This document shows, piece by piece, positions 5,251 to 48,595 of a stretch of 64,000 nt of DNA. The stretch lies in the IMG/VR virus record IMGVR_UViG_3300035101_000063; one strand, 5' to 3'. Below the pieces are notes generated by a model. The model was not told where the DNA came from. It ran no database searches and saw nothing but the letters and a program-made list of their open reading frames with translations. Every line of letters starts with the position of its first letter. The first letter of the stretch is position 1. Both the position numbers and the translations under genes were made by a program. Origin of the DNA: a virus.

Positions 5251-5317
5251 AGTTTTCCCTTATATTTTTCAATATCTTATATCACATATTCTGCCAGCAC
5301 CATACTGACAATCTATC

Positions 5318-5350
5318 AAGACATTAATCAATTAATCATGTTTTGTCAAC
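5318..5350 (-). promoter_or_regulatory. promoter of the cas5-cas8-cas7 operon (GTTGACAAAA -35, TAATGT-like -10)
   Basis: tttgtcaac at 5342-5350 (minus GTTGACAAA); tandem 8-bp direct repeat attaatca x2 at 5323-5338 between -35 and -10 (possible operator); ~60-nt leader to the cas5 ATG at 5250. Confidence 0.55.
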
Positions 5351-5356
5351 ATTTTT

Positions 5357-5668: not shown

Positions 5669-5711
5669 CTTTTATCTCCTCTTTGTATACAACTAACCAA
5701 TTAGTTATGCC

Positions 5712-5743
5712 TTATATAACCACGTAACAACCAGTTTGTCAAC
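5712..5743 (-). promoter_or_regulatory. promoter GTTGACAAAC -35 / TATATA -10
   Basis: tttgtcaac at 5735-5743; tatata at 5713-5718. Confidence 0.5.
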
Positions 5744-5754
5744 TATTTTCAATT

Positions 5755-6273
5755 TCAGGCAATCGTATTATTGTTTTTTATATCTTCAAAATCATTTTCA
5801 TTCAAAACTGAAAATCTCTCAACCAAACCTGTCTCTTTATTTATATTAGCACATATACAACCAAATCCAGTTGTATCATCTTTACCAAATACACCATTCA
5901 AAATACCCAATATGCCTACTCTATATCCACCCTCTGGTCTCTTTCCAATTTGTATATTTGGTATATCTGCTAAATCCTTATTACAAATAACACGCATATT
6001 AATAAGTTGATTTATTGCATATGAATCTATAGCTAAAACCTTATTCAATATATCAACCACATCATTTGGTGTAACAATATCCTTTAACATCCATAATCCT
6101 TTTTTGGACGAACTCGAGTTCGTTTCACCTATATCATCCTGGTCACTAATTACCATCTTTTTGTAAAGCTCAAAATCTCGTCTCAAAACCTCAGATGGCT
6201 CTCTTGGATTCAATATGGCTTCTGCAAAAATAAGCGAATCTTCAGGAGACAACTCAAGTACTTCTATCTTCAT
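5755..6273 (-). CDS. hypothetical protein carrying palindrome copy 2 in-frame
   Basis: 172-aa ORF. The palindrome at 6108-6123 encodes ...ETNSSSS...; possibly two genes fused by read-through (internal Met MLKDIVTP just downstream). Confidence 0.45.
   Translation of the reverse strand: MKIEVLELSPEDSLIFAEAILNPREPSEVLRRDFELYKKMVISDQDDIGETNSSSSKKGLWMLKDIVTPNDVVDILNKVLAIDSYAINQLINMRVICNKDLADIPNIQIGKRPEGGYRVGILGILNGVFGKDDTTGFGCICANINKETGLVERFSVLNENDFEDIKNNNTIA
6108..6123. repeat. palindrome ACGAACTCGAGTTCGT (copy 2)
   Basis: Exact palindrome; intragenic. Confidence 0.9.
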
Positions 6274-7434: not shown

Positions 7435-8433
7435 TTACTCACAAGCACATAATCTAGGGTCTACTGACCTACGATTTGACATGATTGCCCCACCATTACA
7501 AACAACCACAAGTATCTGATGAAAAACCATATCACTAGAATCATTGTGATATGTACACCCAGCTGCTCCAACATTCCATGTACGGTCTCCTATTCCACAA
7601 GAATCAATCGAAGCATACCAATATCCAGTTTCACCTTCTAACCCCAATCCTTGGACTATAGATATACAATTCTTATGATTATCCTTAATCACATTTTCAG
7701 TATCATCAGAATATTCAAGGCCAAAACTATGACATACACTTATACAATCTGACCTCTCCTCTGGAAGATCTGACCTATAATACCAACATATCCCAGAATC
7801 ATCAGGGAATTCATATCCATTATCCAAACATACTGATTCTTCTGTTTCAGTATCCATTAAACCATAAAAATCCGTATCAAAATCAGTATCCGTATCAGTA
7901 TCTGAGTCTGCATCCGTGTCCGCATCTGAGTCTGAATCTGAGTCTGCGTCCGTGTCCGTGTCCGCATCTGAGTCTGTATCAGCATCACTATCCACATACC
8001 CATTCATATTACAACATTTCAAACCTCTAGGACATGTACCACTAACAGGAATTCCACCTAAAGAAGAACAACTACTTAGACATTCACTTTCACATTCAAT
8101 ATTGATATCTGTATCAGTATCTATATACATATCAGAATCGCTATCTGTATTAGAATCGCTATCTGTATCAGTATCTGTATCAGAATCTGCATCAGTATCT
8201 GCATCTGTATCAGTATCGGTGTCCGCATCAGCGTCTGTATCGGCATCTGTATCACTATCAGAATCGGCATCTGCATCAACATACTCATTTCCAGTATCAA
8301 AAACATTACTGTTACTGTAAATATAAGCAGAATCTATCCAAATATATCCAGCATCGACGTCCAAAAATGCATCTGGTTCAGCAGCACACCCCAAAGATAT
8401 AAAATATACAAAAACCCATAAAATCTTTTCCAT
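7435..8433 (-). CDS. secreted Cys-rich protein with two long Asp-rich (D-A/S/T) dipeptide repeat tracts
   Basis: 332 aa; N-terminal signal-like MEKILWVFVYFISLGCAA; DADADSDSDTDADTD... tracts flank a Cys-rich core (CESECLSSCSSLGG...CPRGLKCC). Confidence 0.6.
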   Translation of the reverse strand: MEKILWVFVYFISLGCAAEPDAFLDVDAGYIWIDSAYIYSNSNVFDTGNEYVDADADSDSDTDADTDADADTDTDTDADTDADSDTDTDTDSDSNTDSDSDMYIDTDTDINIECESECLSSCSSLGGIPVSGTCPRGLKCCNMNGYVDSDADTDSDADTDTDADSDSDSDADTDADSDTDTDTDFDTDFYGLMDTETEESVCLDNGYEFPDDSGICWYYRSDLPEERSDCISVCHSFGLEYSDDTENVIKDNHKNCISIVQGLGLEGETGYWYASIDSCGIGDRTWNVGAAGCTYHNDSSDMVFHQILVVVCNGGAIMSNRRSVDPRLCACE

Positions 8434-9706: not shown

Positions 9707-9832
9707 TACTTTTTTAAATAAAAAATATTCCAATAATTTCCTATCCATATCTTTCATACAAATAACTAAATAATAGATTCATATGTCGTATCAATCATTA
9801 TTTTAGAAATATCCATATTAATCTTCTTCTTT

Positions 9833-9848
9833 GCGAACTCGAGTTCGC
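9833..9848. repeat. palindrome GCGAACTCGAGTTCGC (copy 3)
   Basis: Exact palindrome 3 bp downstream of the stop of the small ORF at 9852-10022. Confidence 0.9.
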
Positions 9849-9851
9849 TGT

Positions 9852-10022
9852 CTATATATATCCAAGATACAATAACCACGATGGATATCCATGTGGACAT
9901 ATACCATCAGGTTCCACTACACATCCATCTGTTGCTTCACAAACCGAAGAAAAACCCCATCTCTCAATTTGCTCCAAATCAGGCTTAGGCATAGTTGGTT
10001 CAGGATATCTTTTCTTTTTCAT
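9852..10022 (-). CDS. small Cys-containing protein (56 aa), below the ORF-track length cutoff
   Basis: ATG at 10020-10022 preceded by RBS ggagagata; translates MKKKRYPEPTMPKPDLEQIERWGFSSVCEATDGCVVEPDGICPHGYPSWLLYLGYI. Confidence 0.3.
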   Translation of the reverse strand: MKKKRYPEPTMPKPDLEQIERWGFSSVCEATDGCVVEPDGICPHGYPSWLLYLGYI

Positions 10023-10053
10023 AATATCTCTCCTCTACTTAGTATATTTATTT

Positions 10054-10566
10054 TTATATCTTGGTTCCTTCGAGGTTGGCCCCTTCGAAGCCAGCCCATT
10101 TGAACTTGACCTCTTTAAGGTTGGCACTTTCAAGATTGGCCCCTTTAAGGTTGGCACTTTCAAGATTGGCACTTTCAAGATTGGCATCTTTGAGATTGAC
10201 CCCTTCAAGGTAAGCCCATTTGAGGTTGGCATCTTTGAGATTGGCCCCTTCAAGATTGGCATCTTTAAGGTAGGCCCATTCTAGATTGGCATCTTCGAGG
10301 TCAACCCCTTTTAGGTCAACCCCTTCGAGGCCAACCCCTTTTAGGTTGACCCCTTTAAGGTTGGCACTTTCAAGATTGGCACTTTCAAGATTGGCACTTT
10401 CAAGATTGGCACTTTCAAGATTGGCCCCTTTGAGATTGGCCCCTTTGAGGTTAGCTTCTTCGAGGTCAACCCCTTCGAGGTCAGCCCCTTTTAGGTTGGC
10501 TCCTTCGAAGTTGACCCCTTTGAGGATGGCTCCCCGCAAATTTCTTCCACTTAAATCAATTTTCAT
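10054..10566 (-). CDS. pentapeptide-repeat protein, paralog 1
   Basis: 170 aa; MKIDLSGRNLRGA... then continuous A(N/D)L(K/E)G pentapeptide repeats. Confidence 0.8.
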   Translation of the reverse strand: MKIDLSGRNLRGAILKGVNFEGANLKGADLEGVDLEEANLKGANLKGANLESANLESANLESANLESANLKGVNLKGVGLEGVDLKGVDLEDANLEWAYLKDANLEGANLKDANLKWAYLEGVNLKDANLESANLESANLKGANLESANLKEVKFKWAGFEGANLEGTKI

Positions 10567-11194
10567 TTTTTATCCCTTCGAGGTTGGCCCCTTCTAGATC
10601 GACCTCTTCTAGATCGACATCTTTAAGATTGGCTCCTTTAAGATTGGCTCCTTTGAGGTAGGCCCCTTTAATTTTGGCCCCTTCGAGGTTGGCTCCTTCT
10701 AGATTGGCTCCTTCTAGATTGACTCCTTCAAGGTTGGCACATTTAAGGATGGCCCCTTCTAGATTGGCCCTTTTTAGGTCTGCCATTTCTAAATTGGCCC
10801 TTTTGAGGTCTGCCATTTCAAGGTCTGCCCCTTCAAGGTTGGCCCCTGTAAAGTCTGACCCTTTAAAATTGGCATATCTTAGGTTGGCATCTTCGATGTT
10901 GGCCATTTTGAGGTTGACCCTTTCGAGATTGGCACCTCTTAGGTCTGCCCCTTTGAGGTCAGTACCTTCAAGGTTAGCACCTTCAAGATTGGCCCCTGTA
11001 AAGTCTGCCTTTTCAAGGTCTGCCCCTTCAAGATTGGCACATCTTAGGTATGTCCATTCGAGTTTGGCCCCTTTTAGGTTGGCTCCTTCGAGGTTAGCTT
11101 CTTCAAGGTTGGTCCTTTCTAGCTTAGCACCTCGCAAATCAATTCCTTCGAAGTTGGCTCCCCGCAAATTTCTTCCACTTAAATCAATTTTCAT
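10556..11194 (-). CDS. pentapeptide-repeat protein, paralog 2
   Basis: 212 aa; same N-terminus MKIDLSGRNLRGA; C-terminus ...EGIKNEN; 11-nt overlap with paralog 1. Confidence 0.8.
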   Translation of the reverse strand: MKIDLSGRNLRGANFEGIDLRGAKLERTNLEEANLEGANLKGAKLEWTYLRCANLEGADLEKADFTGANLEGANLEGTDLKGADLRGANLERVNLKMANIEDANLRYANFKGSDFTGANLEGADLEMADLKRANLEMADLKRANLEGAILKCANLEGVNLEGANLEGANLEGAKIKGAYLKGANLKGANLKDVDLEEVDLEGANLEGIKNEN

Positions 11195-11747
11195 TTTTTA
11201 TCCCTTCGAGGTTGGACCCTTTGAGATAGGCCCCTTCTAAATTTATCCCTCTCAAATCTGTCTTTTCCAGCTTGGCCCCTTCTAGGTAAGCCCCTTTAAA
11301 GTTGACTCCTTCCAAGTAAGCCCTTTTAAAATTGGCCCCTTTGAGGTTGGCTCCTTTGAAATTGGCCAAGTAGAGGTTGGCACATTCAAAATTGGCCCCT
11401 TCAAGGTTAGCATCTTTAAGGTCTGCCCCTTCAAAGTTGACCAATTTTAGGTTGGCTTCTTTGAGTTTGGCACCTTCTAGGTTGGCCCATTTAAGGATGG
11501 CCCCCTCAAGATTGGCCCCTTTTAGGTTGGCTTCTTTGAACTTAACCCCTTCGAGGTCAGCCCCTTCGAGGAAAGCCCCTTTTAGATTGGCCCCTTCAAG
11601 GTTGGCTTTTTTTAGATTGGCTCCTTTTAGGTAGGCATCTTTGAGGTTGGCCCCTTCAAGGTCAGCCCCTTTTAGGTAGGCACCTTCGAGGTCAGCCCCT
11701 TCCAAAATGGCTCCTCGCAAATTTCTTCCACTTAAATCAATTTTCAT
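11184..11747 (-). CDS. pentapeptide-repeat protein, paralog 3
   Basis: 187 aa; MKIDLSGRNLRGA ... EGIKNEN. Confidence 0.8.
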   Translation of the reverse strand: MKIDLSGRNLRGAILEGADLEGAYLKGADLEGANLKDAYLKGANLKKANLEGANLKGAFLEGADLEGVKFKEANLKGANLEGAILKWANLEGAKLKEANLKLVNFEGADLKDANLEGANFECANLYLANFKGANLKGANFKRAYLEGVNFKGAYLEGAKLEKTDLRGINLEGAYLKGSNLEGIKNEN

Positions 11748-12275
11748 TTATCTCTTAGCTCCTTCTAAGTTAGCTCCTTCTAAGTTGGCTCCTTTGAAAT
11801 TGGCTCCTTCTAGATTGGCCCCTTCGAGGTTAGCCCATTTAAAATTGGCTCCTTCGAGATTGGACCCTTCAATATTGGCCCATTTTAGGTCTGCCCTTTC
11901 GAGGATGGCCCCTTCGAGATTAGCCCCTTTGAGGATGGCCCCTTCGAGGATGGCCTCTTTGAGGTTAGCCCCTTTGAGATTTACCTCTTTGAGGTTAGCC
12001 CCTTCGAGGTTGGCCCTTTCGAGATTGGCCCCTTCGAGGTTAGTTCCTTCGAGGTTTGCCCTTTCAAGGTTGGCTCCTTTTAGGTTTGCCCTTTCAAGGT
12101 CTGCACCTTTGAGGTTAGCACATCTTAAACCTGTCCATTCAAGGTTGGACCCTTCGAGGTTAGTTCCTTCGAAGTTAGCTTCTTCAAGGTTGGTCCTTTC
12201 GAGGTCTGCCCCTCGCAAATCAATCCCTTTCAAAATAGCTCCTCGCAAATTTCTTTCACTTAAATCGATTTTCAT
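11748..12275 (-). CDS. pentapeptide-repeat protein, paralog 4
   Basis: 175 aa; MKIDLSERNLRGA...; its TAA stop overlaps the next ATG (taaATG). Confidence 0.8.
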   Translation of the reverse strand: MKIDLSERNLRGAILKGIDLRGADLERTNLEEANFEGTNLEGSNLEWTGLRCANLKGADLERANLKGANLERANLEGTNLEGANLERANLEGANLKEVNLKGANLKEAILEGAILKGANLEGAILERADLKWANIEGSNLEGANFKWANLEGANLEGANFKGANLEGANLEGAKR

Positions 12276-12708
12276 TTTTTATCCCTTCGAAGTTGGCCTC
12301 TTTGAGATAGGCCCCTTCCAAATTGGCCCCTTCCAAATTTACCCCTCGCAAGTTGACCTTGCTCAAATCAGTTCCTCTCATGTCAACCCTTTCCAAATTG
12401 GCACTTAGTAAGTCAGTCCCTTCCAAATTGGCCCCTCGCAAGTTAACCTTACTCAAGTTGGCCTCTCGTAAATCGGCCCCTTCCAAATCGGCCCCTCGCA
12501 AGTTTGCGTTACTTAAATTAGCCTTGCTCAAGTTGACCCCTCGCAAATTGGTCCATTCTAAGTTGGCCCCTTCCAGATTGACATTATTCAGATTAGCCTA
12601 TTCTAAGTTGGCCCATCGCAAGTTAATCCCTTCCAAATTGGCCTTGCTCAGATTAGCCTTTCGTAAATTGGCTTCTCGCAAAATTTTACCACTTAAATCG
12701 GTTTTCAT
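12256..12708 (-). pseudogene. pentapeptide-repeat paralog 5/6 interrupted by an in-frame TAG
   Basis: ATG at 12706-12708 gives MKTDLSGKILREANLRKANLSKANLEGINLRWANLE, then TAG (plus 12598-12600). The frame continues ANLNNVNLEGANLEWTNLRGVNLSKANLS... to the family C-terminus ...EGIKNENRFK at 12256. Confidence 0.6.
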
Positions 12709-12721: not shown

Positions 12722-14929
12722 TCAATTCCAAATTCCATCAAACTTACCCACAAGTTGAGTCTTTCGATATCTCACAAGAATTCTTTCCAGCACTCTATAA
12801 ATATCATCTTCAGCCGTTTCAATATCTATAGAATTCATCCAATGCCCAATACAAGCATCAGGCTTATTGAATCCCATTCCATCCTTCAGAAAAGCCCCAT
12901 CACAAACACTACACAGATGGCCTAGAGCGCCCCTCAGTAGGCTCTTCCTTTCCTCGGTTAGTTCAGGTTCTGGCACATGAGAAACCCGCTCAGATTCCCG
13001 CTCAGCCACTCTCCTGATTTTCTGAGAGTAATACTCTCGATTGGCTTCATACTCAGCTTTGCGAATCCTTTCCGAGAGCTCTTCATCACTCTCCTCTTTG
13101 AGATCTACAAAATCAGACTTTTTACTAGAAACTTTTTGGCCACCCTTGAAAACATAATCATTATCAAGAGCCATATAGGCAAGTTTGACTTTGTACTCTA
13201 TAATATTTTGAATGTGAATATCAAGAGGATGAGAAGAAACCAGCCTTTTGATAGTCACATTGTTACTCTTCTGACCTATCCTGCAAATTCTGTCCTCTGC
13301 CTGAATATTCCAAGAGGGTGTCCAGTCAAGATCAACAAAAATCGCATTAGAAGCCCTTGTCAAAGTAAGACCAACACCCCCAGCCTTGATTGTCAGACCA
13401 ACACCTTTCAATTCGCCACATTGAAACCTCCTTACGACATTCTGTCTATCCTCTGCAGACGTATCACCGGTTATTACGTCCCATCCATCACGACTAGCCA
13501 ACTCATCTATAGGGGATCTATGAGCAGAAAAAACAACGACTGGCGTATCAGTTTCCTCATGCTCTTCAATTAAATTCAACATAGCAGGAATTTTAGCTTT
13601 AGCCAACAAAGCCCTTACTCGAGAAAAAGCATTAAAATCAGGGATTGTATCAAGGTCCAACATTGAAAAATCATCTGCATCAAAATTGATTCCTTGAGCA
13701 TCGGCAATTTCTTGAGCAAGTTCTTTCAATTCCTTATTGAGAGACCTACTAGAACAATCAACCTCAATCCTCTGATAAGTCTTAGGAGGAAGGTCTTTGA
13801 GAACGTCTTTTTTGAGTCTACGAATCATAACTCTCTTCATTCTCTCAACAACTTCCTGAGTGGGAAGACCAAACTCATACCCACCGTACTTACTACATGA
13901 ACCATTGAAAAGATTAACAAACTTGTTAAATCCACCCAAAGGATACATTCCAAACGCACACAAAACACCCCACAAATCAAATGGTCGATTCATCAACGGA
14001 GTTCCAGTCAAAACCCAAACCTTGGCAACATTTTTTGATAATTGTGTAACCTTTTGTGTCCTTTTAGCTTTGTAATTTTTTGCAAGATGACCTTCATCAA
14101 AAATAACAATTGTCTCGTTCAAACCAGAACGTTTGTCTGATGGAATATCAGCAACCAGAATCGGGTCACCCTTCTTATTTATTTTCCCACTATCAATTGT
14201 GGGCATCAACCATTTGGGCAGAATATCATAATTGACAATAACTATCTCACCCTCGTTAGGGACAATATTATCGTCTTTTTTACCCTTGACTATCCTAATA
14301 GAATAATCTGGTCTCCAAAGTTGAATCTCATCTCTCCAGTTGTATTTAACAGCAGAAGGGCAAGTAACTAAAACTCTTGATTTCTCAGGAATGGCAACAA
14401 GAGCCTGAACGGTTTTCCCGAGTCCCATATCATCAGCCATCAACGCATGATTATGAAGAGCAAGAAATCTAACTCCATCACGCTGAAAATCATAAAGAGG
14501 ACTTCCGTCAACCCTGACACGTTCAGCTCGTTTTTCAGCTTCTTGAGAGGCTACGGTACCGATTGAAGCACGCTTCCTTAGACTATCAGGAACATCGAGT
14601 TTTAGTTGGTCAGCAATCTCGATGACTCTATCCAAGTCCTCAGTCTTGACACTCACTGTCCAGTGCTTTTCGTCTGGATTCCATCGAGCCCCAGGCATAG
14701 AACGCAACAGAGTAATAGCATTTTTGTCATACCCCATGATGACCTTGCCATCCTCGGTCAATTTACGGACATTATCTCTATTCTGGTCTACGCCAAGTTT
14801 TCGATGACAAGCTGTTGATTTGCAAACTGTATGCCAAGTACCATTTTCAACGAAAGCAAAACCGTCACCCACGCCAACTTGCTCTCCACAACACTCACAA
14901 CGTTTCGAAAATTTGTTTTTTATAACCAT
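12722..14929 (-). CDS. SNF2-family (DEAD/H-like) helicase with N-terminal zinc ribbon
   Basis: 735 aa; CECCGEQ...CKSTACH Zn ribbon; ALMADDMGLGKTVQALV (motif I), FDEGHLAKN (DEGH box), C-terminal helicase lobe; G+C visibly higher than flanking phage DNA. Confidence 0.85.
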   Translation of the reverse strand: MVIKNKFSKRCECCGEQVGVGDGFAFVENGTWHTVCKSTACHRKLGVDQNRDNVRKLTEDGKVIMGYDKNAITLLRSMPGARWNPDEKHWTVSVKTEDLDRVIEIADQLKLDVPDSLRKRASIGTVASQEAEKRAERVRVDGSPLYDFQRDGVRFLALHNHALMADDMGLGKTVQALVAIPEKSRVLVTCPSAVKYNWRDEIQLWRPDYSIRIVKGKKDDNIVPNEGEIVIVNYDILPKWLMPTIDSGKINKKGDPILVADIPSDKRSGLNETIVIFDEGHLAKNYKAKRTQKVTQLSKNVAKVWVLTGTPLMNRPFDLWGVLCAFGMYPLGGFNKFVNLFNGSCSKYGGYEFGLPTQEVVERMKRVMIRRLKKDVLKDLPPKTYQRIEVDCSSRSLNKELKELAQEIADAQGINFDADDFSMLDLDTIPDFNAFSRVRALLAKAKIPAMLNLIEEHEETDTPVVVFSAHRSPIDELASRDGWDVITGDTSAEDRQNVVRRFQCGELKGVGLTIKAGGVGLTLTRASNAIFVDLDWTPSWNIQAEDRICRIGQKSNNVTIKRLVSSHPLDIHIQNIIEYKVKLAYMALDNDYVFKGGQKVSSKKSDFVDLKEESDEELSERIRKAEYEANREYYSQKIRRVAERESERVSHVPEPELTEERKSLLRGALGHLCSVCDGAFLKDGMGFNKPDACIGHWMNSIDIETAEDDIYRVLERILVRYRKTQLVGKFDGIWN

Positions 14930-24253: not shown

Positions 24254-24618
24254 TCCTCTACCTCTTCACAACTCTTTGCTTTAGCAACACATTCTGGTTC
24301 TATAGAAAAATCACCTTCATCCATTATCCTTTCGCAAACATCTTCACAAGCCACATCATCACTATTACCAAACTCCTCATCTGGTCCTGGAGACCCCTCA
24401 GAGCCATCACAACCCATATTCCTTAAATTATCACACGCTCTCTCACAAGGCGTCTTATCTCTCCTTTCATCACTATCAAAAGCTTCTGGAACAGGATTAA
24501 ACGTATCAATCTCACTATCATGAACAGGTAACTCAGGAATAACAGGACTTGGACTACACCATGAAACAAACATCATTGACCCAACAAAAACAAAACTTCT
24601 CATCTTAACATTCCCCAT
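24241..24618 (-). CDS. secreted Cys-rich acidic protein
   Basis: 125 aa; signal-like MRSFVFVGSMMFVSWCS; multiple Cys. Confidence 0.45.
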   Translation of the reverse strand: MGNVKMRSFVFVGSMMFVSWCSPSPVIPELPVHDSEIDTFNPVPEAFDSDERRDKTPCERACDNLRNMGCDGSEGSPGPDEEFGNSDDVACEDVCERIMDEGDFSIEPECVAKAKSCEEVEECGK

Positions 24619-25421
24619 CCTTTAATAATCGTAAAATCTCTAGTTTCATTCCATGTAATATATTCAGAATCTAACCAACAATACCCATAATCACGCCAAT
24701 ATTTACCCCAACTATTCATAACTCTAAATTGAATATCACTTCCAACTATCCTATATCCAACAATAACCATAGCATGATTTCCAACAATATTATCAGAATC
24801 ATCTGGCCTATATATTACTTCTCTACCGACCGCAGGCATAAATGACTTTGAAATCTTAGTACCAAAAACTACAGGATAACCATCACATATTGCTGTCCTT
24901 ATTGCATCAATCCTGTTTTTATCAGATTCAAAAATAGCAAAATATTTACCATTTTTACGTGAATCTGCTCTCATCCATGTTTTAAAAACAGGTTTTCTAT
25001 TAATATCTCGCTTTATAAATGGCCAATTAATCTCATCTGGAACACCATATTTAACCAAACCTTTACAACAAGCCCTAATATATGTTCCATCATCTTTTAA
25101 CGGGATAACATCATGTTGAACTCTTGAATTCCAATACAAAAACATTCTAGATGGATAACCATATTTAAAATTTGATTCATTGTGTCGTTTTTTGTTCTCA
25201 AGAATTCTTATCGCACCAGCTACAGCATTCCCTACACATGAATTGGTATTTAATTGATCAACAACTTCTGAATATTGTTCTAATGATTCAAACTCAGGAA
25301 AAACACCTTTTTTAGTTTTATAACTATAAACAAAATCTCTTTTATCATATGGATTTTGTTCACAACCCAATCCTCTTTCTCTCCAAAATTTCCTAACTAA
25401 AAACCGCTTTATACCACTCAT
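24600..25421 (-). CDS. papain-like (C1 family) cysteine peptidase
   Basis: 273 aa; NSCVGNAVAGA (catalytic Cys region), GNHAMVIVGY (His), VMNSWGKYWRDYGY (Asn-Ser-Trp-Gly) in the canonical order. Confidence 0.7.
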   Translation of the reverse strand: MSGIKRFLVRKFWRERGLGCEQNPYDKRDFVYSYKTKKGVFPEFESLEQYSEVVDQLNTNSCVGNAVAGAIRILENKKRHNESNFKYGYPSRMFLYWNSRVQHDVIPLKDDGTYIRACCKGLVKYGVPDEINWPFIKRDINRKPVFKTWMRADSRKNGKYFAIFESDKNRIDAIRTAICDGYPVVFGTKISKSFMPAVGREVIYRPDDSDNIVGNHAMVIVGYRIVGSDIQFRVMNSWGKYWRDYGYCWLDSEYITWNETRDFTIIKGWGMLR

Positions 25422-31771: not shown

Positions 31772-32653
31772 TCAATAAAATCTTTTCCCATGTCCTTCAT
31801 AATTACCAAGTAATGATTGCTTAGACAAAATAGAATGTCTTATTAAACCATCTTTTTTATCAGCAAAAGCTTTTATCTTTTCTTCACTTTCTATTTCCTT
31901 TGGAAAAATTGGTTTTATAGTCCTATAGTTATCTTTATTTGGAATTGAAAATGAAACACATTCCTTTTTCTTCCTTATAATATTTCCTTTATCATCTTTG
32001 TTCTCTTTAAATAATATACGCTTTTTAAAAACTATTTTTCTATCTCTTATTTTAATCTCTCTTATATTATTTAACATACTATCAAAACAACAAACAGGAA
32101 ATTGATAATCAGAAAGCCACATCATTGGTATTGTTGATTTTAAAAATAATTCAGCACCTCTTCTTGATATACAATATCCCATCAATGTCCTAGTTTTTCT
32201 AACTTGACCATCATCAAAAACGTATATCCGTCTATCTGGTCTTGTCCCACATAAATAAAACATATCAGCATCACTAGGAATAACTACTTTTTTTTCTATC
32301 AATTCTCCATCTTTAAAATAAGCTTTTGACTTTTCAACATCATCCTCCATAATAATTGCCCATTCATCATCAGTATTCAAAAACTCCTGAATAGCCTTTC
32401 TATGACTTAAATTACACGCAACATGAGTTGGTGGAAGAATACTATTTTCAAATAATATACCTTCATTAACAAATTTATCACGATACTCTAAATTCCATAC
32501 AGGAAACCCTCTAGTATCAAACGTATCTTCAATAGCCCATTCCATGCCATCTATAGCGGATATCCTTATTAATTTTTCATGCTCAAAAGATTTCTCCATT
32601 TTTTCTCTTCTATCTTCTGAACGGTCCAAATTTATATAATATATATTCATCAA
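31772..32653 (-). CDS. glycosyltransferase family 25 (LPS-biosynthesis type)
   Basis: 293 aa; N-terminal IYYINLDRSEDRREKM is the GT25 signature. Confidence 0.6.
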   Translation of the reverse strand: MMNIYYINLDRSEDRREKMEKSFEHEKLIRISAIDGMEWAIEDTFDTRGFPVWNLEYRDKFVNEGILFENSILPPTHVACNLSHRKAIQEFLNTDDEWAIIMEDDVEKSKAYFKDGELIEKKVVIPSDADMFYLCGTRPDRRIYVFDDGQVRKTRTLMGYCISRRGAELFLKSTIPMMWLSDYQFPVCCFDSMLNNIREIKIRDRKIVFKKRILFKENKDDKGNIIRKKKECVSFSIPNKDNYRTIKPIFPKEIESEEKIKAFADKKDGLIRHSILSKQSLLGNYEGHGKRFY

Positions 32654-38836: not shown

Positions 38837-39265
38837 TTAATACCCTTGTACAGTTGGTGGATAAATTATTTGTTGAGTACTGTCCTGTCCTCCAACAGAA
38901 TACGTAATATCAAACGTTATTTTAGAACCAATACCATCATCATACTTCAATTGACTAGGAATTACACTTATAACATTAACCCATGGTATAAATGTTTCTA
39001 TAGCAGTAGATACCATACTTGAAAGACGAACCTGTTGAATAGGTGTCATATTTGAAAACAAAAAATCATGAACATTCACCCCAAGGCCAACATTCATCAC
39101 CCTCTCTCCAACACCAGTCAAAAGCAATGCTACAATATTTGCAAAACTATATTTTGTTGGATCTTCCATTTCTGGAAAACCAACAGCACCAATTTGAAAT
39201 GGAAACTTGAACGTCTTAATAATATCCAAATCTTTTGCAGAAGGAACCGTATTAACAATACTCAT
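38837..39265 (-). CDS. baseplate wedge protein gp25/GPW-like
   Basis: 142 aa; LLTGVGERVMNVGLGVNVHDFLF resembles the gp25 GER motif region. Confidence 0.6.
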   Translation of the reverse strand: MSIVNTVPSAKDLDIIKTFKFPFQIGAVGFPEMEDPTKYSFANIVALLLTGVGERVMNVGLGVNVHDFLFSNMTPIQQVRLSSMVSTAIETFIPWVNVISVIPSQLKYDDGIGSKITFDITYSVGGQDSTQQIIYPPTVQGY

Positions 39266-42325: not shown

Positions 42326-45300
42326 CTTGGTGGTGGAGTAGTAGTTCCTGTCACAGGAATACTCACACCACCACTCATTACACTAGTTTGACGTATATTT
42401 TCTTCTAAAATACGTTTTAATAATTTCCTTGTTTGAGCACCTTCATTTGAAACAGCCAAAACAACACTAGCAAGACCAGGTAAATTCATAGCAGCTTCAA
42501 AATTCTTTTTCACATTTATATCAGATTCGGAATCAATAGATGTTTCTATATTTCCACCTAAATCTTTTACCATTGCTTTAGCAACAGATGCCAAAAACAT
42601 CTTTTGTTTAGCAAGGTCTCTCATTTTAGCAGCATATGTATCTATAGTAAGTATAACAGAATCATTAAGAGTTGTTTCAATTGCTCTCCTAATAATATCA
42701 GTACTATCTGTAATACCTAAAGCAAACTGTTCCATCGTAAAATATCCACCACGATATGCAGCGTTAGACTCTCCTTCACCAGCAAGAGGACCAGATTTTA
42801 TTGGAGAATGTGCTATCATTCCATCTGCTATAAAATCAAGACCATCATCAACAGATTGCCTACCTTCTTCTAATCCTGATGTTAGACCATTTATAAATTG
42901 CTCTGCTGTCGTCTTTCCACCCAAAGTATATTTTTCAACATTCGATTCCGTCTTATCAAGAATAAGCTCACTTTGGGCATCTGTTAATAAAGATATAGCT
43001 TTTTCAAGAATTTTAACATCATCACTATCAGGAAACCAACTTTCCTTTTCCGCTTTAAGAGCAGCTCTTAATCTGCCCAATTGACCTGCCATCTCTTCCG
43101 GTTTACGCTGCCATGCCAACTTATACATTCCAAATTTATCAGCACTTCCACCAGCTATTACCTCAGCTTCAGCTATTGCATTACTAACAGATTTTGGCCC
43201 AAAAATAGACTCTGCCATTTTCCACCCAGCATAAGCAGCTAAACCAGCAAGACCTGTAGCACCAGCAGCAGTTGGATGAGATGCAACAGCTTTCAAAAAA
43301 GCTATTCCAGCTTGAGTACCAGCTCCGACCATTCCTGGTCCAAAACCAGCCAACATAGCTCCACCTATAACACCTGCCTGACCAGTAGTTCCTGTCATCT
43401 CTCCTAATTTATTCCAAGCCCACTTAATTCCATCCCATATTGCCATCCCCAATTTAGGAATATTTTCTTTCAAAAAAGGAATAAAATCTTCATTCCAAAA
43501 ATCAATCATTGCTGGTTTCATATCATATTTCCAAAATACTTTAATCCTAGGAACAACTTTATTATCCCAAATACCTATAAAATAATCCCATATTTTTGCA
43601 GCCTTATTTTTTAAATCATTAAAAATTTTATAAAATGGACCTAAAATTTGTCTAACAGACGAATCATCCATAAATAATAAAGCACCAATACCTCCAGCAG
43701 CAATTAATGGAGCAAGAGGACCTGCCATACCCAACATATGCATTATTGGAGCAAGTTCACTTCCAAACTGACTAACTGTATCAAATACTAATCCAATTTT
43801 AGATCCAAATTTTGCCGCGTTTTTAGCACCAACCCCTGTATATTCAGCCATAGATGCAAATACACCACTAATACCCATCTGACGAAATTGAGATAATGCA
43901 TTTACCCATGGTCCCCAAGTTTTATCAGAACCAAGTTCTTTTATTTCTTTTCCTGCTTCACGCATACCAGCAATTTGTTTTCCAACAAGATTTCTTACAT
44001 TTTGTCTAGCTATACTTCTAACAGTTGTATCAAATGACTCTTTTGCTCTATCATATGTTTCTTGTAAGGTTAACCCGGAACTATATGCATCTTTTCCAAA
44101 TTTCTTTAATGCACCAGACCCATCAACAGCCATTTTTGCCATTTTATCTAATGCAGCAGTTCCTTGTTTTGTATTAGTCGCCAAATATGATAATCCAGCA
44201 GCTCCTTCCCCAAGAGCACCACTTAATCCAGATAAAGCTCTTTGAACTTGTGGAGACACATCAGTTCCAAAACGTGCATAAACATTATTAACCATCTTCA
44301 TACCAGCAACTACATCACGACTACCAGTTTCAATAATCTTTCTGGCCGAATCAAATCCAATACCAAGTCTCATAAGATACTTAAGCAATGGATTATCCAT
44401 AAGAGCACGGTCATCACCAATATTTAAAGCTTTTCTAATAGCTACATCCTGTTCAGCAAACATTCTTGCTACAGTATTTGCCTTTGTTATAGCTTCTTCT
44501 TGCGTATCTCCCATCTCTCTAAATACACCAGACATTCTAGCTGATGATTGCATTAAACTCATTATCTCGTCAGAAGTTCTTGCCATAGAAGGAGGCAATG
44601 TTTTAAAAACTTCCCCTAATTCATCCAACTGAACTTTTGCATTCTTTACAGCACCAGTTCCAGTTCCAGCAGCCTTTCCTATTGCCATAAGGCTGTCAAT
44701 CATATTAGCGGCCTCTTTTGGTGAAGCTTGCCAACTTGTTGTCATATCACCAAGAATAGCTGTATATTCAGACATAGGAACGTTAGTTGTTTGAACAACT
44801 TTTACCCAATCTTTTGTAGACAATCCCAATTCATTCATAGCCTCTGTTGCTCCCTTATTAGCTACATGAATTGACCTCATTGTCTCTGCAACAGCATCAG
44901 CCGATGTATTCATACTATAGGCCATACTTGCCGCTTGACTTGCAAACTTCCTCATCTCCTTTCCTGATAAATTCAATGATGCAGCAACTGGTTTAGTAGA
45001 CTGAAGCATACTCACCATTGTAGCTTCCAAACTATTTGTAAGATTACCAGTCTCTCCAGTTAATGTTCTAACATTTGATGCCATATCAGCAATATTAAAT
45101 TGCATCACAGAATTTCTTATTTTATCAAAAGATGATTTTATTTTATTTGCAGATTTTGACCCAATATTGCCAAGCTCTTTAAATGTCTTAGATAAAATAC
45201 CTACTTTATTAGATGCTTTACCGGCATTTTTTTCTGTATCTTCAAAAAAATTCTCTTTCTTGATTTTCTTGATAACACTATCCTGGTCTATTAACATTTT

Positions 45301-45396
45301 GTTAACATCATCAAGTGCTTTTGCAGCCTTTATAATGCCATCCTTCATCCCAGCATCAACAGCTGCCATCTCCAATGATATACCAAGAAAACTCAT
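42322..45396 (-). CDS. tail tape measure protein
   Basis: 1024 aa, Ala/Gly/Met-rich and helical, lying between the tube genes and the baseplate hub. Confidence 0.7.
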   Translation of the reverse strand: MSFLGISLEMAAVDAGMKDGIIKAAKALDDVNKMLIDQDSVIKKIKKENFFEDTEKNAGKASNKVGILSKTFKELGNIGSKSANKIKSSFDKIRNSVMQFNIADMASNVRTLTGETGNLTNSLEATMVSMLQSTKPVAASLNLSGKEMRKFASQAASMAYSMNTSADAVAETMRSIHVANKGATEAMNELGLSTKDWVKVVQTTNVPMSEYTAILGDMTTSWQASPKEAANMIDSLMAIGKAAGTGTGAVKNAKVQLDELGEVFKTLPPSMARTSDEIMSLMQSSARMSGVFREMGDTQEEAITKANTVARMFAEQDVAIRKALNIGDDRALMDNPLLKYLMRLGIGFDSARKIIETGSRDVVAGMKMVNNVYARFGTDVSPQVQRALSGLSGALGEGAAGLSYLATNTKQGTAALDKMAKMAVDGSGALKKFGKDAYSSGLTLQETYDRAKESFDTTVRSIARQNVRNLVGKQIAGMREAGKEIKELGSDKTWGPWVNALSQFRQMGISGVFASMAEYTGVGAKNAAKFGSKIGLVFDTVSQFGSELAPIMHMLGMAGPLAPLIAAGGIGALLFMDDSSVRQILGPFYKIFNDLKNKAAKIWDYFIGIWDNKVVPRIKVFWKYDMKPAMIDFWNEDFIPFLKENIPKLGMAIWDGIKWAWNKLGEMTGTTGQAGVIGGAMLAGFGPGMVGAGTQAGIAFLKAVASHPTAAGATGLAGLAAYAGWKMAESIFGPKSVSNAIAEAEVIAGGSADKFGMYKLAWQRKPEEMAGQLGRLRAALKAEKESWFPDSDDVKILEKAISLLTDAQSELILDKTESNVEKYTLGGKTTAEQFINGLTSGLEEGRQSVDDGLDFIADGMIAHSPIKSGPLAGEGESNAAYRGGYFTMEQFALGITDSTDIIRRAIETTLNDSVILTIDTYAAKMRDLAKQKMFLASVAKAMVKDLGGNIETSIDSESDINVKKNFEAAMNLPGLASVVLAVSNEGAQTRKLLKRILEENIRQTSVMSGGVSIPVTGTTTPPPS

Positions 45397-45406
45397 TATT
45401 TACCTC

Positions 45407-45422
45407 ACGAACTCGAGTTCGT
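45407..45422. repeat. palindrome ACGAACTCGAGTTCGT (copy 7)
   Basis: 10 bp upstream of the tape-measure start codon. Confidence 0.9.
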
Positions 45423-45603
45423 TACCTTCTTCGTCTTGGTCTGCTATAACTTTGCTGATTCTTTTTAACATTCATAGCAGATCTATCTAATGAAGATTTT
45501 TTTTCTACAAACCGCTTTCTTCTTGAATATGGCATATTCATAATGGTCAAATAACTCTGTCCTTGTCTTTCCATTAAATAAAACATTTCATCCTCAAGGA
45601 CAT

Positions 45604-46431
45604 CTATTTGACCGATGGGAAGAAAAAACTTGGCTGACCAACATCCAACTTACCTTCCCATTCATGTCCACACCTCTCACACATAAACTGCACCAACGTA
45701 TCTATATTATCTTCTTTTTTATCAAAAAGATCTCTCAAAGTAGCTCTATCCCTTATCGGTAAATCCATCAACAAATCAATAGCTTCTTTATACTTATTCT
45801 TTCTATCTACTTCAATATCATCAATCGAATCAACACGAGACAATAAATGTAATGTTAAAAGTTCTTTATCTCTTTTTCTTTTACGCTGCTCTGTAAGCCA
45901 TTCTTCATCTTCTATCCTTATCACATGCCATTTTACTTCTCTTCCACTAGGAAGAACATTAACCATTTCTCTTTCCATCCTATTTGGCATTGGTGAAATT
46001 TCAATTTCTGATAAATTTACCGTAACATGCTGACTCACATTACACTCTGGACATGTAACTGTACAATCATAAAAATCACCAAGTGATATTCTACGAAGAG
46101 CCAAAAGAATAGCCATTCTATCTTGAGCTATCAGATTACAAGCTATTTTTCTTAATAAAGACTTATCACTAATAGACCCTATTTGCTCTAAACAATTCCC
46201 AATTATAACATTCAATCTAGAAACTATTGAACCTTTACTAGCCAACAATTCTTCTTCTGGTCCCTTCATCTCACGTAATACAGCATGCACGTGAAGATCT
46301 CCATCCTCATGAATATATCCTGCTGGCAACTCAATAGTAATACAACCTGGCCCTATATCAAGAACATGACCTTTTGTCTTACCTAATACAATTTTATCAT
46401 CGATAACCTTTTCATCATTCATCTCATTCAT
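45604..46431 (-). CDS. hypothetical protein with CxxC pairs
   Basis: 275 aa; CPECN...CERCGHEW. Confidence 0.5.
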   Translation of the reverse strand: MNEMNDEKVIDDKIVLGKTKGHVLDIGPGCITIELPAGYIHEDGDLHVHAVLREMKGPEEELLASKGSIVSRLNVIIGNCLEQIGSISDKSLLRKIACNLIAQDRMAILLALRRISLGDFYDCTVTCPECNVSQHVTVNLSEIEISPMPNRMEREMVNVLPSGREVKWHVIRIEDEEWLTEQRKRKRDKELLTLHLLSRVDSIDDIEVDRKNKYKEAIDLLMDLPIRDRATLRDLFDKKEDNIDTLVQFMCERCGHEWEGKLDVGQPSFFFPSVK

Positions 46432-46600
46432 CTGTAACTTCTTTCTCTATTTTAGCAATCCTAAATTTTTCCCTAACTCTTCTCTCCACATAATCTAAAA
46501 TCAACTCTCTAACAACATCACTAGCACTTCTACCATCCTCCTTACATTGATCAAGAAACCTCTTATATACACCACTTTTTATTTCAACATTCAACCTTGG
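46424..46600 (-). CDS. ribbon-helix-helix (CopG/Arc-like) DNA-binding protein, 58 aa (below ORF-track cutoff)
   Basis: MPRLNVEIKSGVYKRFLDQCKEDGRSASDVVRELILDYVERR...: beta-strand RLNVEI followed by helices; stop overlaps the next ATG; divergent from the plus-strand operon. Confidence 0.55.
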   Translation of the reverse strand, partial: PRLNVEIKSGVYKRFLDQCKEDGRSASDVVRELILDYVERRVREKFRIAKIEKEVTDE

Positions 46601-46692
46601 CATATAACAACCTTCCTAAAACACTACTTGAGTAAATAATACCACTTTTATGCTATCATTATCAACACTTTTGCATTTTTTTATCAAAAAAG

Positions 46693-46720
46693 TTGACAAA
46701 CTTTATCATAATGTTAATAT
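46693..46720 (+). promoter_or_regulatory. plus-strand promoter AGTTGACAAAC -35 / TAATAT -10
   Basis: ttgaca at 46693-46698, 16-bp spacer, taatat at 46715-46720; ~45 bp upstream of the ATG at 46765. Confidence 0.6.
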
Positions 46721-46764
46721 TCATATAGATAGTCGATAAGATTTCGACAGAAAGGAACAAACTA

Positions 46765-46974
46765 ATGAAAGCCTCAGAAATTTATATCTATCAAAAAAAT
46801 GACCCAAATAATACAATTACAGGAATAGTCGACAACAGAGGTTATCTCTATTGTACAGAATGTGCTAAACGACTAGAAAAAGAAGGAACTGCTATTTTTA
46901 TTATGAATTCACATCTCTCCAAATCAAACACTGAACATTGTGATTCATGCAAAAAACAAATAGCCGTATGGTAA
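46765..46974 (+). CDS. zinc-ribbon protein
   Basis: 69 aa; CTECAKR...CDSCKKQ. Confidence 0.5.
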   Translation: MKASEIYIYQKNDPNNTITGIVDNRGYLYCTECAKRLEKEGTAIFIMNSHLSKSNTEHCDSCKKQIAVW

Positions 46975-46981
46975 AAAAACA

Positions 46982-47332
46982 ATGAAAAACCTGAATTTAC
47001 TAATCATTGATGATGATGAACAAATTACTCGTATGCTTTCCAGAGTAATGAAAAATACTTGGAAAAGTATAACAGTCAAACATTCCTGTGATGATGGACT
47101 AATAGCTCTTCAAGACGGAAATTTTGACATAATCCTTAGCGATTGGGATTGCCCAAACAAATCAGACGGACTAAAAATAGTTCAACATTCAACAATACCA
47201 TTCGTAATATATACAGCAAACTATACACTCAAATATGATATGCCCAATATACATATTCTTACTAAACCATGCGATGTCTGTGAAATCTATGATGCTCTCA
47301 TTACTGAATGGATCAATAAGTGTTTGACATAA
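46982..47332 (+). CDS. stand-alone response-regulator receiver (CheY-like REC) domain protein
   Basis: 116 aa; LLIIDDDEQITRML...DGLIAL...FDIILSDWDCPNKSDGLKIV...IPFVIYTA...LTKP carries the conserved acidic pocket, phospho-acceptor Asp, Thr and Lys in canonical spacing. Confidence 0.7.
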   Translation: MKNLNLLIIDDDEQITRMLSRVMKNTWKSITVKHSCDDGLIALQDGNFDIILSDWDCPNKSDGLKIVQHSTIPFVIYTANYTLKYDMPNIHILTKPCDVCEIYDALITEWINKCLT

Positions 47333-47342
47333 AACACAATTA

Positions 47343-47642
47343 TTACCCTTTTACTATCTTTTTATTTCCACTTTCATCATCAACTAAAATAACAACATCT
47401 GGAACAAAACAAATAGCTTCTGCAACATTATCACCTTGCTGTGTAGAAACTTGTATTATACATCCTCTTCCGGGAATCTCCATAGCCTTTGTTGACTTCA
47501 TCCATCCTTCATTTTTGGAACTTGCCTTACAAATTAACTGAAAAGTATCTGGATTACCAAATATCTCAACATCAGAAACTTTCTTCCTCAAATCATCAGA
47601 ATTCACAACATTTACAGTCTTCTTTTTACACATCTTACACAT
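47343..47642 (-). CDS. hypothetical protein
   Basis: 99-aa ORF. Confidence 0.45.
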   Translation of the reverse strand: MCKMCKKKTVNVVNSDDLRKKVSDVEIFGNPDTFQLICKASSKNEGWMKSTKAMEIPGRGCIIQVSTQQGDNVAEAICFVPDVVILVDDESGNKKIVKG

Positions 47643-47676
47643 CCTCTCTGTTTCACGTGAAACATCAATTTTTTTA

Positions 47677-47886
47677 TTATCTCTTAAAATAATTTATTAG
47701 AAATCTAACTAGAGCATCTTTCAATCTAGTAATATCCTCAGATGCCTCAACACCATATCTATCCAACATAGCTACACTTCTAGGATTTTTTATCATATTA
47801 TCTGCTAACTTCTCAGCAGCACCATATGAAATACCCTCCATAATTTCTGAACCACTAGACTCTATAATATCCTTCATAATAACCAT
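47677..47886 (-). CDS. hypothetical protein
   Basis: 69-aa ORF. Confidence 0.4.
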   Translation of the reverse strand: MVIMKDIIESSGSEIMEGISYGAAEKLADNMIKNPRSVAMLDRYGVEASEDITRLKDALVRFLINYFKR

Positions 47887-47888
47887 TA

Positions 47889-48188
47889 TTAACCCTTAAT
47901 TGGAGGAATAACACCTGATTTATCATCCGGAAAAAAATAATGTCTTCCTCTTATTGTGCGCCATATTCCACGTTTACCGTTCACAATATGACGTTTTTCT
48001 CTTGCTTCTTCAAGCATAGTATGACCATCAATATTCAATATCTCATACACACTAATCTTTCTCTTCTTCTTTTTATTAACTGGAATTTCTTCAATTTTAC
48101 AAATTCTACCACTACATGGACACCACGGTAATTTTAACATTCCAATAGGTTTTATCACACCAGCAATATTACCAGAAGATATTGTCAT
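47889..48188 (-). CDS. hypothetical protein
   Basis: 99-aa ORF. Confidence 0.45.
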   Translation of the reverse strand: MTISSGNIAGVIKPIGMLKLPWCPCSGRICKIEEIPVNKKKKRKISVYEILNIDGHTMLEEAREKRHIVNGKRGIWRTIRGRHYFFPDDKSGVIPPIKG

Positions 48189-48595
48189 TCTTTTTCCATT
48201 TTATCTTCTTCAATTTCTTTCAAAAAATCGCCACCAAATTCTTCTAATATTTTAGCCTTAACACCTTTTATCTTTTTCATATATAATTTATTAAATTCCA
48301 TCTCTTTTTTGCTATCCATTCTGTCTATTTCTTTTTCCATCTCATTATCAATATCAGATAATTTTCCTTGAAATTTAGAAAGAGCACTGCCTTTCATTCG
48401 CTTTACTATCGACAATGACAACGCAACCAAAGCTTTTACCGAAACAAAATTAGACATATAGTCTTCAATCTTCCAAGCCTCATCAATCTTTTCATCATCA
48501 TTACCTAACTCAGATGATTCACTCATTACATCAGCATCAACCCTATTAACCAGTAACTCATCTATACTATCAGAATATATCTTTAATTTTCCCAT
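48185..48595 (-). CDS. hypothetical acidic coiled-coil protein
   Basis: 136-aa ORF. Confidence 0.45.
   Translation of the reverse strand: MGKLKIYSDSIDELLVNRVDADVMSESSELGNDDEKIDEAWKIEDYMSNFVSVKALVALSLSIVKRMKGSALSKFQGKLSDIDNEMEKEIDRMDSKKEMEFNKLYMKKIKGVKAKILEEFGGDFLKEIEEDKMEKE

Follow-up and report, generated by a model that had tools for sequence, protein, structure and literature searches.

We describe here a small gene cassette, carried on a stretch of viral DNA of 64,000 nucleotides (nt) (IMG/VR record IMGVR_UViG_3300035101_000063; hereafter 'the window'), which encodes a stand-alone CheY-like receiver protein, REC, that is very probably a genuine phosphorylatable receiver, and one that has lost the usual output face of its fold. 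With a G+C content of 35%, the window comes from a phage with a contractile tail, and has tail genes for a sheath, two gp19-type tube proteins, a tape measure, gp25/gp27-type baseplate parts and tail fibres, nearly all of its genes lying on the minus strand. The cassette consists of a plus-strand Cys4 zinc-ribbon gene followed by that for REC, and is faced by a divergent minus-strand gene for a putative ribbon-helix-helix (RHH) protein. From the pattern of features that REC has kept and lost, we tentatively suggest that it could serve as a phosphoryl 'sink' or 'decoy' for a host phosphotransfer pathway.

A receiver is defined by five catalytic residues: an Asp pair, the phospho-acceptor Asp, a Thr or Ser, and a Lys (Bourret and colleagues, PMC12632262). 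When REC is aligned with CheY of E. coli and Spo0F of B. subtilis, its D10, D11, D54, T78, K95 and P96 fall opposite D12, D13, D57, T87, K109 and P110 of CheY, and across 28 members of the REC family D11, D54, P58, T78 and K95 are invariant, with position 10 always Asp or Glu. The accessory features of phosphorylatable receivers are also present; a Pro four residues after the acceptor Asp (the invariant P58) and a small residue directly following the conserved Thr (position 79), which is Ala in the window protein and Gly in 86% of the family. An initial annotation of this DNA had described a stand-alone receiver with acidic pocket, phospho-acceptor Asp, Thr and Lys all intact, and these alignments bear it out; a 'pseudo-receiver' can be ruled out, as all five catalytic residues are both present and conserved. 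REC is, moreover, under strong purifying selection, with a ratio of non-synonymous to synonymous change (dN/dS) of 0.063 against its counterpart in the related phage contig L005. The closest solved relatives of REC in the PDB are CheY proteins (E=1.4e-5, over residues 2-68), and precomputed matches to the Pfam family Response_reg (PF00072) are present for the homologues P0001-P0004. The window protein itself matches this profile with E=1e-6 and 29.3 bits, against a gathering score of 30.2 bits; we ascribe the near miss to a shortened α3/α4 region, which limits the alignment to residues 7-85.

An AlphaFold2 model of REC, built from a 64-row alignment, has a predicted local distance difference test score (pLDDT) of 94.2 and a predicted template modelling score (pTM) of 0.89, and runs in the order β1α1β2α2β3α3β4α4β5α5, i.e. 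a (βα)5 fold (strands at residues 5-9, 29-33, 50-53, 74-78 and 92-94; helices at 13-23, 36-45, 64-69, 83-86 and 99-115). Foldseek matches the model to the receivers of FixJ, CheY, ArlR and PmrA, with TM scores of 0.66-0.86, and a second model, made from a five-sequence alignment of the family only, was poor (pLDDT 59). Compared with CheY, REC has a 7-residue deletion after α3 and a 5-residue deletion in α4, leaving an α3 of six residues and an α4 of a single turn (residues 83-86). Three residues before the conserved Lys (the K-3 position), Tyr or Phe is found in 86% of receivers and drives the 'Y-T coupling' to the α4-β5-α5 output face (PMC12632262); the window protein has Ile (I92) there, and 89% of its family have an aliphatic residue, Ile, Val or Leu. 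Conservation within the family is concentrated in the active-site loops, in α1 (R17, R21, L23), at W27 and G63, and in the β3-α3 loop (W55-D56-C57-P58), while residues 81-91, the remnant of α4, and the surface of α5 are variable. In kinase-regulator complexes, e.g. Spo0F-Spo0B and HK853-RR468, the donor docks against α1 and the rim of the active site. With this face conserved, and both α4 and the switch residue lost, it appears that REC has retained the surface needed for phosphotransfer and given up the one normally used for output.

Relatives of REC lie, as far as their surroundings could be retrieved, in viral or phage-like DNA. A word-indexed search of 5.8 billion proteins returned four only, and when 1.84 billion cluster representatives were searched exhaustively with a profile there were 1,717 matches at E≤1e-3, at the top of which stand about 25 clusters, all of stand-alone proteins of 108-150 amino acids (aa) sharing [LI][TS]DWDCP, PVV[IV]xTGN and KP. 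A minority of this 'DWDCP' family has DWDMP or DWNMP instead, the latter being the motif of CheY (P0030, P0021 and P0045 are among such members), so that the family grades into CheY; the next-best profile matches beyond it are deltaproteobacterial CheY proteins. All retrievable contexts are viral or phage-like, with a G+C content of 36-54%, and comprise myovirus contigs that share the synteny (L001-L016, L025-L027, L030), contigs from IMG/VR on which a DNA ligase and a dCMP deaminase lie close by (L028, L029, L031), and arrays in which small genes of unknown function all run in one direction (L021, L023, L024, L032, L033). A pattern-limited scan of one genome per species, across 185,579 species, found a 53-kb contig of the same phage type as its sole close match to REC. 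On this contig (L035, CAYUTF010000016.1) REC is 93% identical and both the RHH and zinc-ribbon genes are present; it is binned in a metagenome-assembled genome labelled 'uncultured archaeon', which is likely a mis-binning, given that its promoters are of bacterial type and that it has Shine-Dalgarno sites. Against 50,697 cultured-phage records, neither the cassette (blastn) nor REC (tblastn) gave a match, and two other family members gave weak matches of about 29% identity, or none (tblastn). The signals that bear on the host are inconsistent; Cas7 from the window is 61% identical to that of Nitratidesulfovibrio plasmids, the sheath 33% identical to that of Bacillus phage BCD7, and there is the archaeal label just mentioned.

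The features of the cassette and its immediate neighbours are collected in the following table.

Table 1. Coordinates of the cassette, its control elements and adjoining genes (window positions)
Feature	Position	Strand	Description	Basis
Baseplate-hub gene	45604-46431	minus	ATG overlapped by 8 nt by the stop end of the RHH gene	
RHH gene	46424-46603	minus	59 aa; putative Arc/ParG-like ribbon-helix-helix protein	open reading frame and profile matches
Intergenic region, RHH/zinc ribbon	46604-46764		161 bp; divergent promoters	
Candidate RHH/tail-operon promoter	46636-46665	minus	TTGATA, 18 nt, TGgTATTAT; back-to-back with the cassette promoter	
Cassette promoter	46693-46720	plus	TTGACA (46693-46698), 16 nt, TGtTAATAT; -10 at 46715-46720	
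Leader palindrome	46732-46748	plus	GTCGA-N7-TCGAC; some 5-20 nt past the inferred start site	
Cys4 zinc-ribbon gene	46765-46974	plus	69 aa	C30xxC33 and C59xxC62
REC gene	46982-47332	plus	116 aa; stand-alone mini receiver	
REC codons D10/D11	47009-47014	plus		
REC codon D54	47141-47143	plus	in SDWDCP	
REC codon T78	47213-47215	plus		
REC codons K95-P96	47264-47269	plus		
'Lockin' gene (PF26760)	47343-47642	minus	convergent neighbour of REC; stop codons 10 nt apart	

The open reading frames (ORFs) lie at 46424-47332, as first annotated, and the cassette is the only real strand switch in the window, again in keeping with that description. In a greedy ORF pass the zinc-ribbon and REC genes were the only credible ones on the plus strand, every remaining plus-strand ORF being either inside a CRISPR array or overlapping a minus-strand ORF (Pfam-confirmed at 11748-12275 and 38837-39265). 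Against relatives, dN/dS is low in all three genes (REC, 0.06; zinc ribbon, 0.12-0.46; RHH, 0.1-0.19), which indicates that they are real. An Rfam search of the cassette gave no match, and PADLOC returned only marginal ones, to PDC-M60B and to the N-terminus of SduA. The 'Lockin' label of the convergent neighbour comes from precomputed Pfam matches on homologues of that gene; a literature search turned up no paper on this family.

The 69-aa product of the first cassette gene has two conserved CxxC knuckles some 25 residues apart, and on this pattern would be a zinc ribbon; C30, C33, C59 and C62 are invariant in nine sequences, as is an M47-N48-S49-H50 motif. Searches of Pfam and the PDB gave nothing above noise (best E=0.023 and E=0.24, respectively). 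The Joint Genome Institute (JGI) name 'deoxycytidylate deaminase', attached to one homologue, was rejected, as that protein is 70 aa long and has no deaminase match in Pfam; its CxxCA-like Cys knuckle is similar to the zinc motif of deaminases. The zinc-ribbon ORF ends 7 nt ahead of the REC start codon, and REC has no obvious Shine-Dalgarno sequence of its own, which makes co-transcription, and possibly coupled translation, likely. An identical zinc-ribbon protein (P0005) is encoded on a contig of about 173 kb, which may represent the genome of the window phage. The family comprises six clusters, all from the clade of the window phage, and the gene is missing in L030 and in every other phage lineage with this REC family; we have therefore rejected the idea of an obligate partner for REC, and regard the zinc ribbon as a lineage-specific companion.

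The divergent gene, given as 58 aa in the initial annotation, encodes 59 aa, with the pattern of an RHH protein; a β-strand (PRLNVEIK) and then two helices. The profile searches proposed in that annotation, with Response_reg and RHH_1, did give matches, with scores short of the gathering thresholds: for the window RHH protein these were 18.0 of 26 bits for RHH_5, 17.8 of 21.4 for ParG and 15.8 of 20.5 for RHH_1. It matches a PHROG Arc-like repressor with E=1.4e-3, the orthologue in L030 exceeds the ParG gathering score (25.4 vs 21.4), and a profile of five orthologues, across which 32 residues are invariant, finds ParG (PDB 1P94) with E=8.5e-4 over the RHH core. In size, in the apparent succession of a β-strand and two helices, and in its position at a divergent promoter, the protein is like the Arc, Mnt, CopG and ParG repressors; it differs from them in heading a tail-gene operon, and the scores of the window copy are marginal. 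As the end of the gene overlaps the start of the baseplate-hub gene, RHH is the first cistron of the minus-strand tail operon; its divergence from the cassette stands as annotated, but it would be more than a repressor reserved to the cassette.

The zinc-ribbon and REC genes do follow a near-consensus promoter, much as had been proposed. In a consensus scan this promoter scores 10 of 12 and has an extended -10 element; its -35 is invariant in seven related loci, and L030 has an equivalent (TTGACA, about 17 nt, TATGCT). Promoter-like matches in 45300-48300 are not above chance (19 found vs 15.6 ± 3.8), and it is therefore the conservation across phages that provides real support. The candidate minus-strand promoter comes from the same consensus scan, with conserved blocks in the seven-locus alignment as further evidence; two copies of (T/C)A(C/A)CACTTTT, at a distance of 23 bp from each other (46640-46649 and 46663-46672), flank or overlap it. 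Of all the non-coding sequence, it is the leader, CATATAGATAGTCGAT(A/G)AGATTTCGACAGAAAGGA, that is conserved most strongly. The palindrome of this region sits just upstream of the Shine-Dalgarno sequence AGAAAGGA and occurs once in the window, with no occurrence expected; its arms are invariant in the seven loci, and in L030 the corresponding TCGGC-AAGAT-GCCGA keeps its symmetry through one compensatory pair. Covariation for a leader hairpin was not significant (84/500 shuffles) and the RNA fold is unremarkable (z = -1.7); the palindrome could serve either as an operator or, in the mRNA, as a 5' hairpin. No intrinsic terminator was seen after REC and, given the closeness of its stop codon to that of the 'Lockin' gene, early plus-strand and late minus-strand transcription must collide, a plausible route to the temporal shut-off of the cassette.

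The cassette had been taken for an inserted 'moron', an idea that comparison with relatives overturns. In relatives with a REC of 94%, 55-59%, 50% and 40% identity (L001, L009, L015 and L030 for the range of 40-59%), RHH and REC are found in one and the same slot, with the baseplate-hub gene on one side and, on the other, small genes that lie downstream of the tail tube, and both the G+C content of the cassette and that of its third codon positions (GC3) equal those of its flanks; the shared slot and unremarkable composition speak for an old, syntenic arrangement with no recent insertion. What does vary is the interval between promoter and REC. The zinc ribbon stands alone there in the window; L005 adds a 58-aa ORF (9820-9996), L009 and L010 have extra ORFs of 68/69 aa and 78/79 aa (L009 7147-7353 and 7751-7987; L010 7576-7815), L015 has five ORFs (4742-6004), and in L030, which lacks the zinc ribbon, the interval holds a small ORF beside an unrelated, Cys-rich protein of 274 aa (4001-4972). 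At least four unrelated small-protein families, together with the Cys-rich protein, thus occupy the slot, none of them with a Pfam match, and the slot is an old accessory hot spot in which small ORFs are gained and lost. REC has itself been mobile; its synonymous divergence from the L005 copy (10001-10351) is 0.46, against 0.03-0.06 for the flanking genes of these otherwise near-identical phages, which argues that the REC allele was exchanged by recombination while purifying selection was kept. Over a longer range, REC shows about twice the non-synonymous change of its neighbours (dN of 0.27-0.32 vs 0.12-0.14 for RHH and the hub).

REC is an orphan within the window, as the initial annotation had it: a Pfam search of 74 window ORFs found no HisKA, HATPase_c, Hpt, CheA or receiver phosphatase. 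We propose a model in which REC, derived from CheY-type response regulators and kept by this myovirus lineage as an accessory gene, would be transcribed along with the zinc-ribbon gene by host RNA polymerase, probably early. D54 would then take phosphoryl groups from a host donor, be it the DHp domain of a histidine kinase, the P1 domain of CheA, an Hpt-type domain or acetyl phosphate. As α4 and the Tyr/Phe switch residue are missing, we suggest that REC would act mainly on the flux of phosphoryl groups; as a sink, decoy or competitor, it would drain or block one of the host's two-component pathways while infection proceeds, and a defensive pathway, of the Detocs type, might be the target. The divergent RHH protein and the conserved promoter-proximal palindrome would probably set the timing of the cassette, and late antisense transcription through it from the minus strand may help to shut it off.

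Several features lead us to favour a phosphoryl sink or decoy, albeit with considerable reserve: the intact and conserved active site, the conserved donor-docking face and the loss of α4 and of the switch residue, but also the orphan status of REC, its host-type promoter, the viral or phage-like distribution of the family, and its fast, exchange-prone evolution. A bolder version, in which the DWDCP mini-receivers of many unrelated lineages would be phage-specific proteins for host takeover or anti-defence, CheY derivatives reduced to their phosphotransfer face and serving as universal phosphoryl decoys that silence host two-component signalling, Detocs included, and are expressed here from an RHH-controlled early promoter set in antisense within the tail operon, seems to us quite improbable. 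A number of points weigh against the role we favour. The window protein falls 0.9 bits short of the Pfam gathering score, and the confident structural model was built on CheY-rich alignment rows and hence leans towards the canonical fold. The negative result for kinases covers the 64-kb window, with some 60-110 kb of the phage genome, going by contigs of 125-173 kb, lying outside it. Conservation of α1 across phages of very different G+C content could equally mean a partner other than a kinase, and receivers without α4 or Y-T coupling can still signal, by way of the α1-α5 surface (PMC12632262).

This last point opens the way to REC as an effector-type single-domain regulator, the phosphorylated form of which would, in the manner of CheY-FliM, DivK or CpdR, use a non-canonical surface, α1-α5 for instance, to bind and re-programme a host protein, be it a motor, a protease adaptor, a kinase or a polymerase. 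Receivers have a second allosteric route to that surface (PMC12632262), the nearest relatives of REC outside its own family are CheY proteins, and a binding patch could be made up of the conserved R17, R21 and W27, on α1 and where β2 starts. Saying this, the usual α4-β5-α5 binding face is truncated and variable, the aromatic residue at K-3 is lost and α5 is poorly conserved, and a single host target would have to be conserved across the hosts of phages that range from 36 to 54% in G+C content; we consider such a role unlikely. Enzymatic use of the fold is also conceivable, with REC as a small phosphoesterase, cRec- or HAD-like, that hydrolyses a phosphorylated small molecule or a cyclic-nucleotide signal. 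Receivers do catalyse the removal of their own acyl phosphate, divergent phage Rec domains have been proposed as cyclic-phosphate-processing enzymes (Iyer et al., PMC7824862), and the near-invariant W55-D56-C57 at the entrance to the active site could form a ligand pocket. Neither the cassette nor the neighbourhoods examined hold NAD+/ADP-ribose enzymes, RNA ligases or WYL domains, however, and the grading of DWDCP into the DWNMP of CheY within one family (P0030, P0021, P0045) also speaks against it, making this very improbable indeed.

A role internal to the phage is suggested by the arrangement of the locus. REC might sense the state of the host through acetyl phosphate or cross-talk from kinases, and its phosphorylated form, acting with the zinc ribbon as a 'split' output, or with RHH, could control the divergent promoters and hence the baseplate, tape-measure and tail operon. 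The divergent arrangement of RHH and REC is kept down to 40% REC identity (L015, L030), the overlap of RHH with the start of the baseplate-hub gene implies that tail genes are under the shared control region, there are conserved elements close to the promoters, and the zinc-ribbon and REC genes are closely spaced, with no clear Shine-Dalgarno sequence for the latter. Yet most phage lineages with the REC family have no adjacent RHH or zinc-ribbon gene (L021, L023, L024, L028-L033), L030 does without the zinc ribbon, and REC, with its exchanged allele, has diverged at roughly double the rate of RHH and the hub, which would be unusual for a core component of a timing mechanism. We regard a switch of this kind as doubtful, and so return to a phosphoryl sink or decoy as the role that we would, for now, put forward. 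All in all, what was first observed at this locus is confirmed, and its interpretation is partly supported.

The question is of some general interest, in that two-component phosphotransfer is the main currency of bacterial signalling and is used by at least one anti-phage system (Detocs), while little is known of direct interference with it by phages. A compact receiver family with its active site intact and its output surface lost would be a simple and portable means of such interference. If REC does act as a phosphoryl sink or decoy, this would constitute a new mode of host takeover or counter-defence, and might also provide a tool for damping chosen kinases; should it instead time the tail genes, this would be one of few instances in which a phage employs the chemistry of a receiver to gauge the physiology of its host.

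Elsewhere in the window, and in its relatives, several further features deserve mention. A type I-C CRISPR-Cas effector module lies on the minus strand at 942-1883 and 1914-5250, with Cas7/Csd2 (E=1e-109; at best 61% identical to the Nitratidesulfovibrio plasmid protein), Cas8c/Csd1 (E=3e-142) and Cas5d (E=8e-42). About 30 nt after cas7 begins an array of some 11 repeats, GTTTCAATCCACGCCCCC(A/T)T(G/T)AAGGGGGCGA(A/C)AC, divided between two sub-arrays whose repeats differ slightly. Adjacent to the module there is no cas3, cas4, cas1 or cas2 gene, and two ORFs on the far side of cas5, of 103 aa and 172 aa, are without a Pfam match; the module could be a Cascade devoid of nuclease and adaptation functions. 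Five consecutive pentapeptide-repeat proteins (170, 212, 187, 175 and 96 aa; Pfam E of 1e-32 to 1e-78) are encoded at 10054-12546 on the same strand, and could be DNA mimics or candidates for anti-defence. Also on the minus strand are two tRNA genes at the start of the window, tRNA-Thr(TGT) and tRNA-Met(CAT) (18-179), a 332-aa ORF without a Pfam match (7435-8433), made up of degenerate 12-18-nt repeats (TCTGTATCAGTATC...) and predicted to encode an acidic, Asp/Thr/Ser-rich low-complexity protein, a SNF2-family helicase (12722-14929), a papain-like C1 peptidase homologue (24600-25421), and a family-25 glycosyltransferase of the lipopolysaccharide (LPS)-biosynthesis type (E=6e-12; 31772-32653), set among large tail-fibre and baseplate genes. 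In the relative L012, a gene at 10430-10710 has a precomputed match to Pfam 'Tad6' (PF25188), which, from its name, we take to be a Thoeris anti-defence family; if so, this group of phages carries counter-defence genes.

Among known systems, CheY of E. coli and Vibrio (PDB 3CHY, 2CHE, 3TO5) comes closest to REC in kind, being likewise a stand-alone protein of similar size, with the same catalytic quintet and a fold that superposes with TM scores of 0.7-0.79; it is also the best PDB sequence match. The SDWDCPN of REC resembles the SDWNMPN of CheY, and the family member P0030 has DWNMP exactly. REC differs in being phage-encoded, in having only 21-24% identity and in the replacement by Ile of Tyr106, which in CheY belongs to the α4-β5-α5 surface that binds FliM and CheZ; with α4 truncated as well, and no che genes in the window, REC does not fit the picture of a chemotaxis orthologue. 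Spo0F, 27% identical to REC (PDB match E=0.018), is likewise a single-domain receiver, and one for which phosphotransfer is the function, but it has full-length α3 and α4 helices, and dedicated kinases and Spo0B, for which no counterparts were seen in the window.

Phages themselves offer further points of comparison. The cRec domains of jumbo phages (Iyer et al. 2021, PMC7824862), like REC, are divergent receiver-fold domains with conserved catalytic Asp residues, found outside kinase operons; what defines them is that their genes are linked to those for NAD+/ADP-ribose-processing enzymes, RNA ligases or WYL domains. The REC family is still detectably CheY-like and is set apart by its gene neighbourhood, which here consists of RHH, the zinc ribbon, the baseplate hub, 'Lockin' and small unknown ORFs, a context that does not support a cRec identity. 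Alteromonas phages V22 (gp30, 149 aa) and A5 (gp11, 147 aa) encode CheY-like proteins annotated as class II auxiliary genes (PMC10579305, PMC7289586); these too are stand-alone receivers in or next to a tail or host-recognition module, but are some 30 residues longer than REC, and a tblastn search of the 50,697 phage records with the window REC and two family members did not match either one. Stand-alone CheY-like genes have also been annotated in phages of ammonia oxidisers, none of them detectably close to the REC family. The phrase 'phage-encoded response regulator' is absent from the 7.7 million open-access full texts and 0.34 million preprints searched, where related terms gave annotation-level mentions only.

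For the function that we tentatively propose, the nearest parallel is DtcB, the stand-alone receiver of the Detocs system, which is proposed to absorb stray phosphate from the DtcA kinase (bioRxiv 10.1101/2023.01.24.525353). REC, which we liken to DtcB by description only, shares with it a stand-alone receiver, an intact acceptor Asp and the lack of an effector domain; DtcB, however, sits in an operon with its kinase, DtcA, and an effector, DtcC, while REC is a phage orphan. A second example of a phosphate-sink receiver is CheY1 of Sinorhizobium, which is likewise in an operon with its kinase. Phage homologues of DtcB are reportedly able to inhibit Detocs. The kind of system that we envisage for REC is thus not new; what is new is a truncated receiver subfamily that is, in our searches, almost confined to viral or phage-like contigs.

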